Origin: Vampirovibrio chlorellavorus
GTDB lineage: Bacteria > Cyanobacteriota > Vampirovibrionia > Vampirovibrionales > Vampirovibrionaceae
Assembly: GCA_001858525.1 (NCBI GenBank)
Contig: LAPX01000009.1
Location: 3,922 to 67,921 of the forward strand
DNA: 64,000 bases
Reading direction: 5' to 3'
Shown here piece after piece: positions 1 to 27,448 of this stretch. Both the position numbers and the translations under genes were made by a program. Each line of letters starts with the position of its first letter. Within the stretch, counting starts at the first letter, position 1. The notes below the pieces were generated by a model. That model saw only the letters and a list, made by a program, of their open reading frames with translations, was not told where the DNA came from and ran no database searches.

Positions 1-873
1 TCGGGTTTTGAGTCTGGATTCCATTTGCTCTAAAGCCCAATGCAGGTGATCTTTGGATTGGTGAGAATAGCGAAACACCATTTGAATGCTCCGATGCCCT
101 GAAAAGCGCTGTACGGTGGGTAAATCCACCCCAGCCTGAACCAGGTGGGTGATGGCGGTATGGCGGAGGGTATGACGGCAGACCTGGTATCGATCCAGCC
201 CAGCGGCGGTGACGACTCGATAAAAGGGTTTCTCAATTTCTTCTCGATGTCCACTGATAGAGCGATTGGCCGGAAAAAGATAGGTCTGTCCCGGCTTGGT
301 TTGATACTGGAGATAGTGGGTGAGATAAGTGGTTAATCCGGCGGTCATGGGTTGCATGCGGGCGCCGCATTTGGCTTTGGGAATAAAGATTTCCTGTCGG
401 GCGCAATTAATATCTTCAATTTTGATAGAAAGAATCTCGGTTCGCCGCATGGCCGTTCCCAAGGCGATGCGGATGAAAGGTTCAATGACAGGGCACTCGT
501 CTTTTTGAGCGGCTTCAAGTAAAGCCTCGATTTCCCCGGCGTCCAGATAGCGGGTGCGGATGTTGTTTTCCCCGTATTTCACCACCCGGCAAGGCACTTT
601 CACCAGCCAATCCCATTCCACTGCCTTGTGGAAGAGTTGCGAGATCACGGCCAAGTATCTGTTAACGGTCGATTCCTTCAGCCCTTGGGCTAACAGATGA
701 CGCTTGAACCGTTCGATTTCAAACCGGTTGATTTCTGAAAGCGGCATATCCCCGAAATACGGGACAATCTGCTGCTCCAGCTTCTTTTTCTTGTCCGGGA
801 TGTTGCGTCCGTTCTCAAGCTCCAGGTTCTCCAAGTATTGTTCCGCTGCGTCCGTAAAGGTGGTGGGATGCAT
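1..873 (-). CDS. Tyrosine-type site-specific recombinase/integrase (phage integrase family), 3' end runs off the window
   Basis: Reverse-strand translation from ATG at 873 gives about 290 aa with C-terminal 'HTLRHT...VQRFSGH...RYSH' (R-H-R-Y catalytic signature). Adjacent to tRNA-Phe. Not in the ORF track because it is open at the window edge. Confidence 0.8.
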   Translation of the reverse strand, partial: MHPTTFTDAAEQYLENLELENGRNIPDKKKKLEQQIVPYFGDMPLSEINRFEIERFKRHLLAQGLKESTVNRYLAVISQLFHKAVEWDWLVKVPCRVVKYGENNIRTRYLDAGEIEALLEAAQKDECPVIEPFIRIALGTAMRRTEILSIKIEDINCARQEIFIPKAKCGARMQPMTAGLTTYLTHYLQYQTKPGQTYLFPANRSISGHREEIEKPFYRVVTAAGLDRYQVCRHTLRHTAITHLVQAGVDLPTVQRFSGHRSIQMVFRYSHQSKDHLHWALEQMESRLKTR

Positions 874-5335: not shown

Positions 5336-6349
5336 ATGTCCGAGAAAACCAGGTTATTGATTACCGGCGGCTGTGGCTTTATTGGCAGCTGGTTGATTCG
5401 TCACTTGCTTCAACAGCATGCCGATATCCAGATTACCAACCTGGATTTACTGACCTATGCGGGCAATCCGGACAACCTGAAATCAGTGGCGTCCGATGAG
5501 CGGTACCGATTTGTGCAGGGTGATATTTGCGATGAAGCGTTGGTGTCTCGCCTGATGGCAGAGACCGATGTTTGCGTGAACGTGGCGGCCCAAACCCATG
5601 TGGACCGCAGTATTAGCGGGCCCAGCGAGTTTATTCGCACCAATGTGTGGGGCACACAAGTCCTCCTGGAAGCGGCCAGACTGCGGGCCGTCCAGAAGTT
5701 CGTGCAGGTTTCCACCGATGAGGTGTATGGCAGCATCGAAGGCACGGCCAAGTTTACCGAAGCCTCGCCGCTAGAGCCCAGCAGCCCTTACTCCTCCAGC
5801 AAGGCAGCCGCCGATCTCATCGCCCTTAGCTATTGGAAAACCTACCAGATGCCGGTTTGCGTGACCCGTTGTACCAACAACTACGGCCCCAACCAGTACC
5901 CGGAGAAGTTGATTCCCCTGTTTATCCTGAACGCCTCGGAGAACAAGCAGGTGCCCGTTTACGGGGATGGCTTGAACGTGCGGGACTGGATTCACGTCAA
6001 GGATCACAGCGCCGGGGTGGCCCGGGTGATTTGGGACGGTCGTCCCGGGGAAGTGTACAACCTTGGTTCGGGCAATGAACTGAACAACCTGCAAATCACG
6101 GGCCTCATTCTCAAGGCATTGGGCAAAGATGAGAGCCTGATTCGTTTTGTCACTGACCGACCGGGGCACGATCGGCGCTATGCGCTGGATTCTGGAAAAA
6201 TCGAGCGAGTGTTGGGCTGGAAAGCACAAATTCCTTTTGAGCAAGGTATGGCGGAAACAGTGCAATGGTACCTGGATAATCCCCAATGGGTGGCCAATGT
6301 GCGCCAGCGGGAACCGCAAAGTCCCTTTGCCAGCGCTGCTGCTCAGTAG
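5336..6349 (+). CDS. rfbB: dTDP-glucose 4,6-dehydratase
   Basis: Rossmann 'TGGCGFIGS', a YSSSK catalytic region and the typical RmlB C-terminus. ATG at 5336; the track ORF starts at an upstream TTG. Confidence 0.9.
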   Translation: MSEKTRLLITGGCGFIGSWLIRHLLQQHADIQITNLDLLTYAGNPDNLKSVASDERYRFVQGDICDEALVSRLMAETDVCVNVAAQTHVDRSISGPSEFIRTNVWGTQVLLEAARLRAVQKFVQVSTDEVYGSIEGTAKFTEASPLEPSSPYSSSKAAADLIALSYWKTYQMPVCVTRCTNNYGPNQYPEKLIPLFILNASENKQVPVYGDGLNVRDWIHVKDHSAGVARVIWDGRPGEVYNLGSGNELNNLQITGLILKALGKDESLIRFVTDRPGHDRRYALDSGKIERVLGWKAQIPFEQGMAETVQWYLDNPQWVANVRQREPQSPFASAAAQ

Positions 6350-22178: not shown

Positions 22179-23087
22179 ATGTTTCGTTCCGGTTTTGCCG
22201 CTCTGCTGGGTCGGCCCAATGTGGGAAAATCCACGCTGCTCAACCGTTTGGTGGGCCAAAAAATAGCCATCACCAGCCCGGTGGCCCAAACCACCCGTCA
22301 CCGCATCAAAGGCGTTGTGACTACTGAAAAAGGACAGGTCGTGTTTCTGGATACGCCGGGTTTTTCCAAGCCGCTGGATAAGCTGGGCACCTATTTGACC
22401 GATGAGAGTCTGGCCGCTTTATCGGAAGCGGATGTGTTCTTGATGGTGGTGGATGTCTCCCAGCCGCCTGGCAAAGGGGATGAGTGGGTGGCCACCCAGA
22501 TTCGGGAAACCGGCAAGTTCGTTCTCTTGGTACTGAACAAAAGCGATGTGCTGAAAAACAAGCCGGTGAAGCTGTTGGCGCATCGCAAGGCTTATAACGA
22601 GCTGTTTACCGGCTATCCCAAGATTAAAGCCTTGAGCGTTTCGGCCAAAACCGGCAAGAATATGAGCGAACTGATCGAAACCATCATCCGCAAACTGCCG
22701 GAAGGTCCTGCCTATTATCCGGAAGACGCGGTGACCGATCAGCGACTGCGGGAAATTACCGCTGAAATTATTCGGGAAAAAGTGCTGCTGAACACCCGGG
22801 AGGAGATCCCTCACAGTGTGGCGGTTGGGATTGAGAGCTTTAACGAGAGTGATCCCACCATTACCCACATTGAAGCCACGTTATACGTGGATCAAAAGTC
22901 CCAAAAAGGGATTTTGATTGGACATGCGGGCAGCATGATCAAGGAAATCGGAATCCAGGCCCGTGTGGAGATTGAAACGCTGCTGGAACAGAAAGTGCAT
23001 TTGGCCCTGAACGTGAAACTGAAGGAAAACTGGCGTAAGGATAAAATCTTCCTGAAATCCCTGGGACTGGCCCCACCAGAGCATTAG
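22179..23087 (+). CDS. era: GTPase Era
   Basis: G1 'GRPNVGKST', G3 'DTPG' and a C-terminal KH domain. Confidence 0.95.
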   Translation: MFRSGFAALLGRPNVGKSTLLNRLVGQKIAITSPVAQTTRHRIKGVVTTEKGQVVFLDTPGFSKPLDKLGTYLTDESLAALSEADVFLMVVDVSQPPGKGDEWVATQIRETGKFVLLVLNKSDVLKNKPVKLLAHRKAYNELFTGYPKIKALSVSAKTGKNMSELIETIIRKLPEGPAYYPEDAVTDQRLREITAEIIREKVLLNTREEIPHSVAVGIESFNESDPTITHIEATLYVDQKSQKGILIGHAGSMIKEIGIQARVEIETLLEQKVHLALNVKLKENWRKDKIFLKSLGLAPPEH

Positions 23088-23233: not shown

Positions 23234-24124
23234 ATGACCATTTTCCCCTCTCGATATTCTAAACGTTTTGTGGTACAGGCCTTATTGCTGGCGGGTTTGC
23301 TTGCAGGAATCGCTACGCCTTGGGCTTTGGCACAAAACTTACCGGGACAACCCACCGTGGCCCCGGCCATCAAAGCCGGTGGCATCATGGCTCTGGATTT
23401 ACCAGACAGTAGCGCTCAATCGGTTTCTCTGGACATTGTTAAAGGCCGCTTTTCGGATTATTCGGTGGGGCGCATTGTCCTGACCGGTTCCGGCATTGAC
23501 TTTCGCAACGGGACCTTACAGGGGCTAAAAGCCAACATTCTGGAAGGGGATTTTGATAACCTCTTGGTCGACAAACTATCGCTGGTCACACCGGCCTTTT
23601 CCTTTGACACCATGCAGTTGTTGAACAATCGGGCCTTTGTCTTGTCCCAGCCCGTTACCGCCCAAGTCAGTCTGGCCATTACAGAAGCCGGGATCAACCG
23701 CTTTTTGGCCAACCCCAAGACCTTGGGGAAAATTGAAAAATCCCTGCAAAAGCAAACCGGCGGCCTCAAGCTGATTACCTTCTCCAACCCCAGTTTCAGT
23801 TTGCTGGGTGGTAATAAGGTCAAACTGAACTTAACCGGCATAGTGGCCCAAGGGTTGGCTGTGCCGCTGGAAATGACCGGCAAGCTGGCCCTGCAAGACG
23901 GGCAACTCAGCTTGCAAAACTTGCAAATGGCCTCGGGGGGGAATGACTTGAACCTGCCCATGGATGTCTCTAAAACCTTTCAGGACAAAATCAACGAACT
24001 GATTGACCTGAAGCGTCTGGGAAAAAACAGCATGGTCATTTACGCCGATAGCATGAAGGTCAGTGGCAAAACCCTGAATATTGAAGGCCACGCCACCCTG
24101 ACCAAGCTGCAATTTGGGGCTTAA
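23234..24124 (+). CDS. Secreted protein, DUF2993/LmeA-like (tentative)
   Basis: N-terminal signal peptide and a beta-rich repetitive pattern; weak family resemblance only. Confidence 0.35.
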   Translation: MTIFPSRYSKRFVVQALLLAGLLAGIATPWALAQNLPGQPTVAPAIKAGGIMALDLPDSSAQSVSLDIVKGRFSDYSVGRIVLTGSGIDFRNGTLQGLKANILEGDFDNLLVDKLSLVTPAFSFDTMQLLNNRAFVLSQPVTAQVSLAITEAGINRFLANPKTLGKIEKSLQKQTGGLKLITFSNPSFSLLGGNKVKLNLTGIVAQGLAVPLEMTGKLALQDGQLSLQNLQMASGGNDLNLPMDVSKTFQDKINELIDLKRLGKNSMVIYADSMKVSGKTLNIEGHATLTKLQFGA

Positions 24125-24217
24125 TGAATACAATTCAAGGTGAGGTTACCATTACAAACGCCTTGTACCGGTAGTCTCACCCTAATTCTATAACTATTAC
24201 CAGTCCTCTAAAAAGTA

Positions 24218-24254
24218 CCCCCGCCAACCGAAGTTGACGGGGGCTTTTTTATGG
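24218..24254. terminator. Bidirectional rho-independent terminator
   Basis: Hairpin CCCCCGCCAACCGAAGTTGACGGGGG followed by CTTTTTTAT, with AAAAAG on the other side. It lies between convergent genes. Confidence 0.6.
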
Positions 24255-24267
24255 GCTGATGCGCTGG

Positions 24268-24390
24268 CTATTTGCAGCAGTCAGCGCCGGAACCACAGCA
24301 GGGTCCTGGGCAGCAGCCACTGTTTGCCAAGGCAGCCGCTCCGCCAAAGACGGTGGCCAGCACAATGAGGGTTGCGAATAATTTTTTCAT
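24268..24390 (-). CDS. 40-aa secreted cysteine-rich peptide (signal peptide plus an 18-aa core NSGCCPGPCCGSGADCCK), absent from the ORF track
   Basis: Reverse translation reads MKKLFATLIVLATVFGGAAALANSGCCPGPCCGSGADCCK-stop. AGGAG sits 7 nt upstream of the ATG and the terminator is immediately downstream. Confidence 0.55.
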   Translation of the reverse strand: MKKLFATLIVLATVFGGAAALANSGCCPGPCCGSGADCCK

Positions 24391-24505
24391 AATCGATACT
24401 CCTGAATAGTAATACTGTACTTTTAACGGGTGATCGTTGACAGTCTGCTAAGACTGAAAACGGACACCGGGCTCATTTTCTCCACCGTAAAAAGAGCCCC
24501 GCTTG

Positions 24506-24847
24506 TTAGTTCAGGAGTACACGCAGTTCCAGGTGTCGATTGGACTGATCTGGAATGAACGCCAGATCAGTTCGAGATTGCCCCAAAACGGGCTGCAGGC
24601 CAAGCAGTGCTTGATAATCAAAAGCTACACCCGAAAGGGCCAAATCCGGCAGGGGGCCACTAAAACCCGTCTGATCCAGTTGCGCTTGGGTGGCGGGTTG
24701 CACCACGCAACAAGCCGGCAACTCCTTTTGGACCGCATGCCCCCGACCTTGTTGACAACAGGCGTGAGAGGGTCCGGTAAACAGGCAAAGCGAGGTCAGC
24801 CAAGCGGCTAACGCGACGAAAATGACCAAAAACCGGTTTGATTTCAT
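24506..24847 (-). CDS. Secreted hypothetical protein with two CC doublets (start probably 'MKSNRF...')
   Basis: Signal peptide 'MKSNRFLVIFVALAAWLTSLCLF', then 'ACCQQG' and 'ACCVVQ'. Confidence 0.45.
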   Translation of the reverse strand: MKSNRFLVIFVALAAWLTSLCLFTGPSHACCQQGRGHAVQKELPACCVVQPATQAQLDQTGFSGPLPDLALSGVAFDYQALLGLQPVLGQSRTDLAFIPDQSNRHLELRVLLN

Positions 24848-24939
24848 GTACGATCTCAAGCTGCTAATTTCAGGTTAGCACTTTTCATCAAGACTTGCCA
24901 CAGACTGAAAAGTTTCCTGGGCACGCTGGCAAGAAAGGG

Positions 24940-26044: not shown

Positions 26045-26455
26045 TTACTGAAGCAGCAGTTTCCCATTCTCCTGAGGGTAGGCCTTCACCGAAATCAGGC
26101 AGATTTCATTCAACAGGCTTCGGTAGGCCATCCGTTGAAGATTGCCGCAGGAATCCCGGGTGCTGGGCGGCGTTTCTTTCAAATGGATTTCCAGTATCGT
26201 ACCGGGGTCTAAATCCAGCATGCCAAAGGAACGTACTTCAATGCCGTCCAATATTTCGCCAATGGAACGGGTGTTCAGCTTTAGCCGATCTCGTTCTGCC
26301 CAGGCGCCCAGCAGATTATCACTAAAATCATCTTCATAAATCAGCAGAATGGTTTCATAGTCCCGGGCCGCTTCTACCAATCGACGAGTCGAATATCCCA
26401 AGGTATCCGACACAATAATCTCTGGTTTGGTGCTGGCTTCCAGTAAGCGCTCCAT
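26045..26455 (-). CDS. Hypothetical protein downstream of the ERF recombinase
   Basis: ORF; no domain recognised. Confidence 0.4.
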   Translation of the reverse strand: MERLLEASTKPEIIVSDTLGYSTRRLVEAARDYETILLIYEDDFSDNLLGAWAERDRLKLNTRSIGEILDGIEVRSFGMLDLDPGTILEIHLKETPPSTRDSCGNLQRMAYRSLLNEICLISVKAYPQENGKLLLQ

Positions 26456-26683: not shown

Positions 26684-27448
26684 TTAAGACTTAGGAAGGG
26701 CTTTTAAATGAAATTTCAGTTTTTGATAGGCGCTCTCCAAATCCTCTAGGCGTCCTGCTTCCGCCAGCGCTTTTATAGAAGGGATTTCTGCCCACTGCAA
26801 CACTTCTTCGTTACTTAACTGGTGTTCCCGTTGCAAAGCCAGAATTTGGTTGGCTTTGCTCAGCGCTTGGCCCCGGAGATCGGCATCATCACCCATGTTC
26901 TCGCTGACGGGTTCTCTGGCCTTGGTGGCCGCTGTCACTTGGCGTTCGTCTGCCGGTCGCCCTTTGCCTTCGGGAAGTGCCCTTTGCGCGGATGGCTGGG
27001 CTTTGCTTCCAGTGACAACCGGGTGACTGTCCTCTCGTTCCGGATCGTCTTCGGTGGCAATGCCAAAAAACTTCAGGTAGAAGTATTTGTTGGCCCCCGT
27101 GGTGGCCTTGTAAATAGCTTTATCAAAAGCGTCTTCGGCATAGCCGGTAAATTGGGAATCAATGACCTCGCCGGTTTCGGCATCCACCACCCGAAAGAGC
27201 AGGGTGACCGAGGCCCAGTTTTTCCCATCGGCTTTGGTGCCTATCGATTGTTCCAGGGTGGTTGGCAATACCATCAGGCCGTGGTCGTTAAGAATTTGCT
27301 TGACCGTTAAAATATCGGCTTCTGTGGCGTAGTGGTATTTGTGAAAAGCATTAAATCCCCGCTTGGGAACTGATTCGATGGCTTTTTGCACCGTTAGAAT
27401 CTTGGCGTATAGGCCGTGAGGTTTTGATTTTGTAGTGCTGGCGCTCAT
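26684..27448 (-). CDS. erf: ERF-family single-strand annealing recombinase (phage Erf-like)
   Basis: 'KAIESVPKRGFNAFHKYHYATEADIL..VKQIL...GL' and 'GYAEDAFDKAIYKATTGANKYFYLKFFGIATEDD' parallel the phage P22 Erf core. Confidence 0.8.
   Translation of the reverse strand: MSASTTKSKPHGLYAKILTVQKAIESVPKRGFNAFHKYHYATEADILTVKQILNDHGLMVLPTTLEQSIGTKADGKNWASVTLLFRVVDAETGEVIDSQFTGYAEDAFDKAIYKATTGANKYFYLKFFGIATEDDPEREDSHPVVTGSKAQPSAQRALPEGKGRPADERQVTAATKAREPVSENMGDDADLRGQALSKANQILALQREHQLSNEEVLQWAEIPSIKALAEAGRLEDLESAYQKLKFHLKALPKS

Follow-up and report, generated by a model that had tools for sequence, protein, structure and literature searches.

The window analyzed here is a stretch of 64,000 nucleotides (nt) from Vampirovibrio chlorellavorus (contig LAPX01000009.1), in which two small genes are located in tandem on the minus strand. 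Gene 1 encodes a protein of 113 amino acids (aa) with a conserved His-Ala-Cys-Cys signature, designated the HACC protein, and gene 2 encodes the 40-aa precursor of a peptide with three vicinal cysteine pairs. An initial annotation, made from the sequence, had described a tandem pair of secreted proteins carrying cysteine doublets, and both open reading frames (ORFs) proved to be real and conserved. The coordinates of the genes and their features are collected in Table 1.

Two small genes conserved in tandem

The product of gene 2 is MKKLFATLIVLATVFGGAAALANSGCCPGPCCGSGADCCK, the exact translation of the minus-strand ORF at 24268-24390. Its core reads CC PGP CC GSGAD CC, which corresponds to CC-x3-CC-x5-CC and not to the CC-x4-CC-x5-CC initially proposed; among the relatives the first loop contains three, four or five residues. 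The AGGAG Shine-Dalgarno (SD) sequence at 24399-24403 lies 8 nt ahead of the ATG, one more than first counted (7 nt). A homologue of 40-43 aa was identified directly downstream of the HACC gene in 12 of 12 Vampirovibrio-type loci by a motif scan and two translations, including the distant loci L016 and L017. These 12 loci (the window, L001-L004, L006/L007, L008-L011, L016 and L017) were retrieved via the upstream HACC protein. The six cysteines were invariant in all of them, and one proline and one alanine of the core were also invariant among close relatives. The nearest genomic relatives of the locus were metagenome-assembled genomes of V. chlorellavorus and Vampirovibrio sp.

Between the peptide genes of the window and L002, 14 synonymous and 2 non-synonymous differences were counted (pS 0.49, pN 0.02; Nei-Gojobori), and pN/pS ranged from 0.04 to 0.55 across all 45 pairs of peptide genes. 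The pN of the core was equal to or lower than that of the signal peptide, indicating that the loops are under purifying and not diversifying selection. Every copy retained the SD sequence and the ATG, a signal peptide with MK(K/T/N) n-region, hydrophobic core and A-x-A site, and a strong terminator. These comparisons indicate that the ORF is a real gene under purifying selection. Loss of the ORF from relatives with preserved synteny, which the initial annotation had named as a refutation, was observed in none of the 12 loci.

NCBI already contains a protein identical to this 40-aa product, along with near-identical entries, for example WP_303674615.1, which belongs to the same 90% cluster and is labeled "hypothetical protein [Vampirovibrio chlorellavorus]". 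Annotators know the small gene as no more than a hypothetical protein, and its description as unlisted had to be given up in this respect. Some gene calls do miss it: those on the ENA contigs of L006/L007 skip an intact, conserved 40-aa peptide ORF at 5462-5584 (+). Under-calling of small ORFs hides the peptide family in public annotations.

The classic signal peptide first noticed in gene 2 was supported on inspection by eye under the -3/-1 rule, as every homologue has an A-x-A site ahead of its core. The first cysteine is preceded by NSG, ASG, AGT, AGA, AVN, ANL or AAD, with G, T, A, N, L or D at the -1 position. The lipobox [LVI][ASTVI][GAS]C is not conserved, and lipoprotein processing of the peptide was rejected. 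Therefore, cleavage by signal peptidase I after A-x-A is the likely processing step. The predicted mature peptides contain 18-20 residues, or 15-20 when the ambiguous cleavage site of L017 is counted, and 6 of the 18 residues of the window's mature peptide are cysteine. The two most distant sequences were those of L016 (...AQAANLCCHSGAACCTPGAACCK; partner P0036, profile E 2e-11) and L017 (...ANAADCCNSGSPCCATGNACCE; partner P0052, profile E 3e-6). The non-cysteine residues of the 12 mature peptides were A (41), G (31), P (18), S (14), N (11), D (8), Q (8), E (7), K (5) and T (5), with single V, L and H and no aromatic residue.

Searches of Pfam and NCBIfam with the peptide returned no family at E ≤ 1 except PhrK, which matched the signal peptide alone (E=0.03, 14.6 bits against a cut-off of 35) and was rejected as signal-peptide similarity. 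Profile searches of the PDB with both proteins gave signal-peptide or transmembrane (TM) noise only, and neither protein of the pair had a match in PADLOC or PHROGs.

The strong terminator noted just past the stop of gene 2 was also found; its hairpin lies 23 nt past the stop codon (-34 kcal/mol including flanks). It is flanked by an A-run on one side and a T-run on the other, and is probably bidirectional, serving both gene 2 and a convergent LmeA-like gene (23234-24124, +). An equivalent strong hairpin with a U-run followed the peptide gene in eight other folded loci (L001, L003, L004, L006, L008, L010, L016 and L017). An Rfam match of the terminator to NsiR1 (18.5 bits against a gathering score of 39, E=0.92) was regarded as chance.

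Gene 1 starts with the ATG at 24847 (MKSNRF...), as in the database proteins and all homologues, and not with the TTG at 24859. A word-seeded search with the HACC protein retrieved 12 relatives, and an exhaustive profile search yielded 40 clusters (50% identity) at E ≤ 1e-3, all of 85-160 aa. The family alignment (A4) contains 41 sequences. The protein had no match in Pfam, NCBIfam, PADLOC, PHROG or PDB, and a Foldseek search of its AlphaFold2 (AF2) model against PDB also returned none. It founds a family of 40 clusters that has no name as yet. The motif strings of the peptide core and the HACC protein returned no papers in a full-text search of the literature, and literature searches on Vampirovibrio returned nothing relevant on cysteine-rich proteins or copper.

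The two ACC(Q/V) doublets first described in this protein are present as HACCQQ and PACCVV. The HACC signature is located just outside a hydrophobic N-terminal helix, and the second CC follows about 15 residues later, ahead of a variable stretch rich in proline and glutamine. Within the helix, Trp16 was conserved among close relatives and, like Cys21, invariant in alignment A2; Cys21 reached at least 90% in A4 and Trp16 was present in most family members. The family ends in the consensus PDQSxRYLELRVLLN, of which D100, Q101, S102, R104, L108, L112 and N113 were each conserved in at least 90% of A4. The AF2 model had a mean predicted local distance difference test score (pLDDT) of 70.5 and a predicted TM-score (pTM) of 0.28. 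Residues 24-77 were modeled without regular structure (pLDDT 51-62), followed by short helices at 78-82, 85-94 and 104-112.

Because residue-specific conservation extends into the hydrophobic segment and the N-terminus is positive, the sequence suggests that the HACC protein is a retained N-in/C-out membrane anchor rather than a freely secreted protein. With Trp and Cys conserved in the helix, the protein is probably a membrane-anchored partner and not the second secreted protein of the initial annotation. Such a topology would place the Cys/His/Cys-Cys cluster at the periplasmic surface of the membrane. Alternatively, the protein may be cleaved after S-H-A.

The two genes were found together in every locus read and appear by comparison to constitute a conserved and self-contained module. 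The two families, both unnamed and always linked, appear so far only in Vampirovibrio-like genomes among these loci.

Predicted RNA fold between the genes

The spacer from gene 1 to gene 2 is 115 nt long and contains two conserved hairpins, which are enclosed by a long-range helix. Compensatory changes were found in 13 of 30 base pairs (alignment A5, RNAalifold), for example GGGCUC/GAGCCC in place of GGGUCG/CGACCC. This predicted fold, which links both genes and sequesters the SD sequence of gene 2, had not been part of the initial annotation.

The long-range helix is formed by the end of gene 1, GUA CUC CUG AAC UAA (24510-24519), and the segment UUCAGGAGUA (24397-24406), and corresponds to the pairing of alignment columns 2-11 with 125-135 in RNAalifold. 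In all 12 loci the last codons of gene 1, CTC CTG AA, pair with the SD segment TTCAGGAG of gene 2. The ViennaRNA probability of pairing between the SD sequence and the final 18 nt of gene 1 was at least 0.98 in every locus, even in L016 and L017 with their otherwise unrelated spacers. Covarying flanks such as AACUAAACC/GGUUUAGUU often lengthen the helix. TTC-AGGAG was invariant in the 10 aligned loci and present in L016 as well, while L017 has AAGGAGTA in its place and keeps the pairing.

The codons of the terminal leucine pair were restricted. The first was CTC or CTT (nine and two of the 11 loci with Leu at this position) and the second was CTG in 12 of 12, whereas five other conserved leucine columns of gene 1 each used three to five different codons. 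When the last four codons of gene 1 were recoded synonymously, only 12-26% of the recodings kept a pairing probability above 0.9, compared with an observed value of at least 0.99 in all 12 loci. This codon choice supports selection at the RNA level. From the SD pairing with the tail of gene 1 and the restricted synonymous codons, we infer one bicistronic mRNA and translational coupling, in which translation of the peptide would depend mainly on ribosomes that open the helix as they terminate on gene 1. Rfam searches of the region returned no family for the hairpins or the long-range helix.

Gene neighborhood and look-alike peptides

The genes upstream of the pair varied by locus and included ilvE, an acetyl-CoA carboxylase carboxyltransferase gene, a glycosyltransferase gene or unknown genes. 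Downstream, an LmeA-like gene and era were found in most loci, and other genes in L016 and L017. In the window these are the LmeA-like secreted protein gene (23234-24124, +; Pfam LmeA, 3.9e-11) and the Era GTPase gene (22179-23087, +), both convergent to the pair. Because both are absent next to the pair in L016 and L017, their linkage in most Vampirovibrio-type loci probably reflects synteny rather than function. L016 carries an IlvE of 74% identity in the same synteny, from which alone we infer that it comes from a relative.

ORFs between about 9.7 and 39.8 kb of the window encode ClpB, YlqD, an FAD oxidoreductase, Era, the LmeA-like protein, IlvE, an ERF recombinase, glycosyltransferases, sugar-nucleotide enzymes, a GNAT acetyltransferase, an FGGY kinase and XseA. 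The absence of adjacent modifying enzymes stated in the initial annotation could be extended: no MNIO (DUF692), DUF2063, radical-SAM, YcaO or lanthipeptide enzyme was found within about 13 kb of the pair in the window, and none was conserved beside the pair among the called genes of any of the 12 syntenic loci.

Two further observations concern neighboring genes. An ERF-family single-strand annealing protein is encoded at 26684-27448 (-), about 2 kb from the pair (Pfam ERF 2.6e-16; PHROG_155 2e-30), and may be a prophage remnant; a defense or phage origin of the pair itself was rejected, as no matches were found despite this gene. Adjoining ilvE is a 136-aa ORF without family match (26045-26455, -), which has an obvious homologue at the same position in L004 (132-548, +), a soil-metagenome contig, and by this comparison seems to be another conserved unknown gene.

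The peptide profile also weakly retrieved look-alikes of 42-43 aa (E 0.2-2.5) of the ADCCKPGAECCKPDAPCCKK type, for example MSKLITML...AQAADCCKPGAECCKPDAPCCKK, from contigs of 65% GC. In L012/L013, L014 and L015 the look-alike gene starts about 65 nt after an ORF of about 145 aa that has a signal sequence, several cysteines and the C-terminus RSRHGPPxFSGRAPP. These ORFs, uncalled in the source annotations, show most features of the rule for CutF-like/DUF2946 copper-trafficking proteins: a signal peptide, a length below 170 aa, a C-terminal PP and central cysteines, with no CxxxC. Variation without CxxxC has also been reported for these proteins (PMC8456105). Immediately upstream of the CutF-like ORF of L015 is a gene for a Met-rich DUF305 protein of the CopM type (Pfam 3.9e-24), and CopM binds copper (PMC4335983). 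The look-alike SD sequence, GGAGG, is predicted to form a partial pairing with the terminal GCUCC(G/A)CC of the CutF-like ORF (P 0.5-0.7), with a hairpin in between, and by analogy this pairing may echo the Vampirovibrio arrangement. The CutF-like ORFs of L012-L015 were rejected as homologues of the HACC family (hhalign probability 0.3%).

Table 1. Coordinates of the gene pair in the window and of look-alike features in loci L012, L014 and L015
Feature	Coordinates	Strand	Evidence or remark
Gene 1, HACC protein, 113 aa, ATG start	24506..24847	-	ORF list, homologues, AF2 model
Hydrophobic N-terminal helix, residues 3-23	24779..24841	-	AF2, pLDDT 86-92
His28-Ala29-Cys30-Cys31 signature	24755..24766	-	H28, C30 and C31 at least 90% in A4, invariant in 12 loci
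Second vicinal pair Cys46-Cys47 (L-P-x-C-C)	24707..24712	-	C47 invariant, C46 at least 90% in A4
Conserved C-terminus PDQSNRHLELRVLLN, last residues of the HACC protein	24509..24553	-	A4 conservation, predicted helix 104-112
5' arm of long-range helix, UACUCCUGAA, anti-SD-like, last codons of gene 1	24510..24519	-	
Two intergenic hairpins, enclosed by long-range helix	24441..24500	-	Hairpin 1 about 24469-24500; hairpin 2 core 24441-24456
3' arm of long-range helix, UUCAGGAGUA, containing gene 2 SD	24397..24406	-	
Gene 2, tri-CC peptide precursor, 40 aa	24268..24390	-	Minus-strand reading and ORF list, homologues, purifying selection
Gene 2 signal peptide, residues 1-22	24325-24390	-	
Gene 2 predicted mature 18-mer, NSGCCPGPCCGSGADCCK	24271-24324	-	
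Intrinsic terminator hairpin after gene 2	24244..24217	-	12-base-pair GC-rich stem, then T-run
CutF-like ORFs, about 145 aa	L012 5480-5935; L014 about 5500-5933; L015 about 420-854	+	Rule features; uncalled in source annotations
Look-alike SD pairing regions	L012 5918-6006; L014 5916-6006; L015 837-926		Predicted fold

Relation to known systems and possible function

The closest functional analogy for the pair would be an exported metallothionein together with a relay of the MerT/MerP or CutF type, and the pair is a member of none of these families. For each family compared (bacterial metallothionein, bufferin/MNIO RiPPs, i.e., ribosomally synthesized and post-translationally modified peptides, CutF/DUF2946, MerT/MerP, STa, SCIFF and lipoproteins), at least one of the defining features tested was missing.

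The peptide resembles metallothioneins (the 25-residue Cu-metallothionein of Neurospora crassa, and the bacterial SmtA/BmtA and MymT) in being very short, with about 33% cysteine, CC motifs, no aromatic residues and loops of Gly, Ser, Ala, Asn, Asp and Lys. Its composition agrees with the generic definition of a metallothionein (low mass, high cysteine, no aromatics, CC/CxC/CxxC), the metal clusters being putative; six thiolates suffice for a Cu4S6-type cluster. However, those metallothioneins are cytosolic and lack a signal peptide, whereas the Vampirovibrio peptide would be exported, has vicinal pairs only without CxC or CxxC, and has a dedicated membrane partner. No Pfam or NCBIfam match at E ≤ 1 connected it to the bacterial SmtA/BmtA model PF02069.

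Bufferins (BufA/BufB/BufC; PMC11626156) share with the peptide a Sec signal on a cysteine-bearing product that reaches the periplasm and a role in copper buffering, which is here a proposal. A Sec signal as defined for them was recognized by eye with the -3/-1 rule (MKK n-region, hydrophobic core and A-x-A in all homologues). Their folded cores of the DUF2282 or BUF_6/12Cys type contain 61-68 residues, in contrast to the 15-20 of the Vampirovibrio peptides, and no DUF2282 match was found in Pfam. They also need an adjacent MNIO and DUF2063 protein for their thiooxazoles, and none is located near the pair in the region surveyed or among the called genes of the syntenic loci. SCIFF peptides (six cysteines in forty-five residues) differ in lacking a signal peptide; no NCBIfam match to them and no radical-SAM gene nearby was found.

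The HACC protein is similar to CutF-like/DUF2946 proteins in its length below 170 aa, an N-terminal signal or anchor, a central cysteine motif and a conserved C-terminal motif (PMC8456105). Its gene is likewise located upstream of a structured intergenic region predicted here to affect the downstream gene, for which CutF provides a precedent with a structured intergenic element controlling the downstream gene. However, the HACC protein has Cys21, Cys30-Cys31 and Cys46-Cys47 (CC...CC) and neither the CxxxC of CutF nor the CxxC of DUF2946, and it ends in PDQSxRYLELRVLLN and not in a PP motif. No match to PF11162 was obtained at E ≤ 1, and no gene for a multicopper oxidase or other cuproprotein adjoins the HACC gene.

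In the MerT-MerP/MerF systems of mercury uptake, the first gene likewise encodes a small membrane protein (about 115 aa) whose first helix bears vicinal cysteines on the periplasmic side, and the next gene a small, Sec-exported periplasmic partner with cysteines; their relay logic matches the model proposed below. They differ in that MerT has three TM helices and the HACC protein one predicted helix, and in that MerP adopts the HMA fold with GMTCxxC, unlike the Vampirovibrio peptide; no MerT or HMA Pfam match, and no merR or merA among the neighbors, was found. ArsD ends, as the peptide does, in CC-x5-CC, and its Cys112-113 and Cys119-120 are metalloid binding/sensing pairs (PMC4562236). ArsD is, however, a cytosolic chaperone of 120 aa with a thioredoxin fold; the peptide showed no homology to it in Pfam or NCBIfam and no ars context.

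The initial annotation had considered a metal binder, a disulfide framework or a RiPP precursor. Because of the metallothionein-like loops, the purifying selection, the partner's histidine beside CC and the look-alikes in a copper context, the evidence at sequence level favors the metal binder. The best reading, to which we assign a probability of roughly 0.4, is that of an exported metallothionein-like thiolate peptide with a membrane partner, which together would buffer or relay Cu(I) or another soft metal. The non-cysteine composition of the peptides is that of small metallothioneins such as the 25-aa Neurospora Cu-metallothionein. The invariant histidine beside CC in the HACC protein points to a set of ligands and not to a disulfide function, and a core evolving no faster than its signal peptide seems unlike arms-race toxins. 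As precedents, periplasmic CopG binds a tetranuclear Cu4 cluster through CxCC (PMC7558416), the terminal cysteine pairs of ArsD sense metalloids (PMC4562236), and bufferins are Sec-exported cysteine peptides that buffer periplasmic copper (PMC11626156).

Under the metal-binding model, the locus would be a self-contained two-gene operon of Vampirovibrio-like bacteria. Gene 1 would give rise to a small protein anchored in the inner membrane, with the helix cysteine, the HACC signature at the membrane surface and the second CC facing the periplasm. The product of gene 2 would be exported by Sec and trimmed by signal peptidase I to a peptide of 15-20 residues, in which loops made up of Gly, Ala, Ser, Pro, Asn, Asp and Glu lie between three vicinal cysteine pairs. 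The final codons of gene 1 would sequester the SD sequence of gene 2 on their common mRNA until gene 1 ribosomes open the helix, so that the two products are coupled. The exported, unmodified and metallothionein-like peptide would then bind a soft metal or metalloid, with Cu(I) as the likeliest, through its thiolates, and either buffer periplasmic metal or exchange it in one or the other direction with the His/Cys site of the HACC protein.

Several points weigh against this model. No copper, mercury or arsenic gene was found near the pair in any Vampirovibrio-type locus, the neighbors being housekeeping genes. Six thiols exported by Sec into an oxidizing compartment may simply form three disulfides, and the AF2 model is of low confidence around the cysteine motifs of the HACC protein. 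At E 0.2-2.5 the homology of the look-alikes to the Vampirovibrio peptide is unproven, and they would offer a parallel rather than proof. As for the coupling, the pairing is partly automatic where Leu-Leu codons meet an AGGAG SD sequence, and the 12 loci are phylogenetically related and hence not 12 independent trials.

As an alternative, the mature product would be a compact three-disulfide bioactive peptide acting as a toxin, predation effector or signal, as known for STa and conotoxins, with the HACC protein as immunity, oxidative-folding or export partner. We consider this unlikely. Peptides of the STa/guanylin/conotoxin type are indeed made from Sec-signal precursors as products of about 18 residues with six cysteines including vicinal pairs; STa itself (CC-x2-CC-x3-C-x2-C, 18-19 aa) is exported by Sec and oxidized in the periplasm. 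The organism is also an obligate predator of Chlorella, and the protector-first gene order with SD sequestration resembles antitoxin-toxin logic, since coupling would ensure that the protective partner is made first. However, STa has a pro-region and a hydrophobic/aromatic pharmacophore, while the Vampirovibrio core starts three residues past A-x-A without a pro-region, follows the different pattern CC-x3-5-CC-x5-CC, and has loops of small or acidic residues with no hydrophobic, aromatic or basic pharmacophore. The core is under purifying selection with no sign of diversification, the gene is single-copy in a housekeeping context, and no match to Enterotoxin_ST (PF02048) or another toxin family was found in Pfam or NCBIfam. 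In a diderm a further export step would be needed, and none is linked; the invariant histidine of the partner would also be left unexplained.

Oxidation could instead join the two products, either as an envelope thiol/disulfide device in which the CC pairs of peptide and anchor form intermolecular disulfides or as a sacrificial redox buffer against oxidants of the algal prey. Such a role is improbable, although both products carry only vicinal cysteine pairs, the partner's cysteine context is flexible and of low confidence, and coupled expression would suit partners that react together. An analogy is provided by the chlamydial proteins OmcA, which is small and cysteine-rich with CC motifs, and OmcB, which are encoded by tandem genes and cross-link the envelope. 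The peptide, however, lacks a lipobox or other anchoring signal, an 18-mer would be a poor structural cross-linker, and no thioredoxin-fold or Dsb gene is located in the conserved neighborhood. The conserved histidine and C-terminal helix of the HACC protein would again have no explanation.

The RiPP option of the initial annotation is disfavored by the gene context, and we give it little chance. It would require that the cysteines of a Sec-signal precursor, as in bufferins, oxazolins and DAG-RiPPs, are modified by a distant enzyme or that the HACC protein is a new maturation factor. The peptide is short with invariant cysteine positions, and Sec-signal-bearing, cysteine-rich RiPP precursors exist (PMC11626156; PMC13056109). 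However, none of the maturases looked for was found within about 13 kb in the window or conserved beside the pair in the 12 loci, a DUF2282 match was lacking, the 15-20-residue core has no obvious recognition sequence and is far from the 61-68 residues of bufferin cores, and the HACC protein has no enzyme-like fold in its AF2 model. That the RNA fold is the main functional element, acting in mRNA stability or regulation with the small ORF as incidental, would agree with the compensatory changes in the hairpins and the long-range helix but is practically excluded because of the protein-level selection (14 synonymous against 2 non-synonymous differences from L002), alongside the invariant cysteines and the SD sequence, start codon, signal peptide and terminator conserved in all loci.

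A broader version of the soft-metal reading is possible but doubtful. The pair may represent an undescribed extracytoplasmic soft-metal system of Vampirovibrio-like bacteria, in which synthesis of an unmodified, Sec-exported "mini-metallothionein" of 15-20 residues is locked to that of a single-pass H-A-C-C partner by an anti-SD sequence in the partner's final codons, with a convergent or distantly related version in other phyla that pairs a similar tri-CC peptide with CutF-like proteins. Tri-CC peptides might then be general, overlooked periplasmic copper ligands that gene callers often miss.

Taken together, the comparisons describe what appears to be a clean, conserved, uncharacterized and lineage-restricted small-protein system, whose function is best put as a ranked set of hypotheses. 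The signatures H-A-C-C ... C-C ... PDQSxRYLELRVLLN and signal peptide plus CC-x3-5-CC-x5-CC can be used to annotate two unnamed families, whose small ORFs and their like are missed by gene callers (the peptide in L006/L007 and the CutF-like ORFs in L012-L015). The locus would also provide a natural example of translational coupling in which the C-terminal Leu-Leu-Asn codons of the first gene double as an anti-SD sequence. If the three-disulfide explanation is true, the pair would be a candidate predation effector with its immunity protein in an alga-killing bacterium relevant to algal cultivation. If the metal-binding reading is true, it would be the first bacterial system based on a metallothionein-like peptide that is exported without modification, and would represent a simpler counterpart of bufferins and methanobactins; it would also add a component to the handling of copper in the periplasm of the non-photosynthetic lineage that is sister to cyanobacteria.

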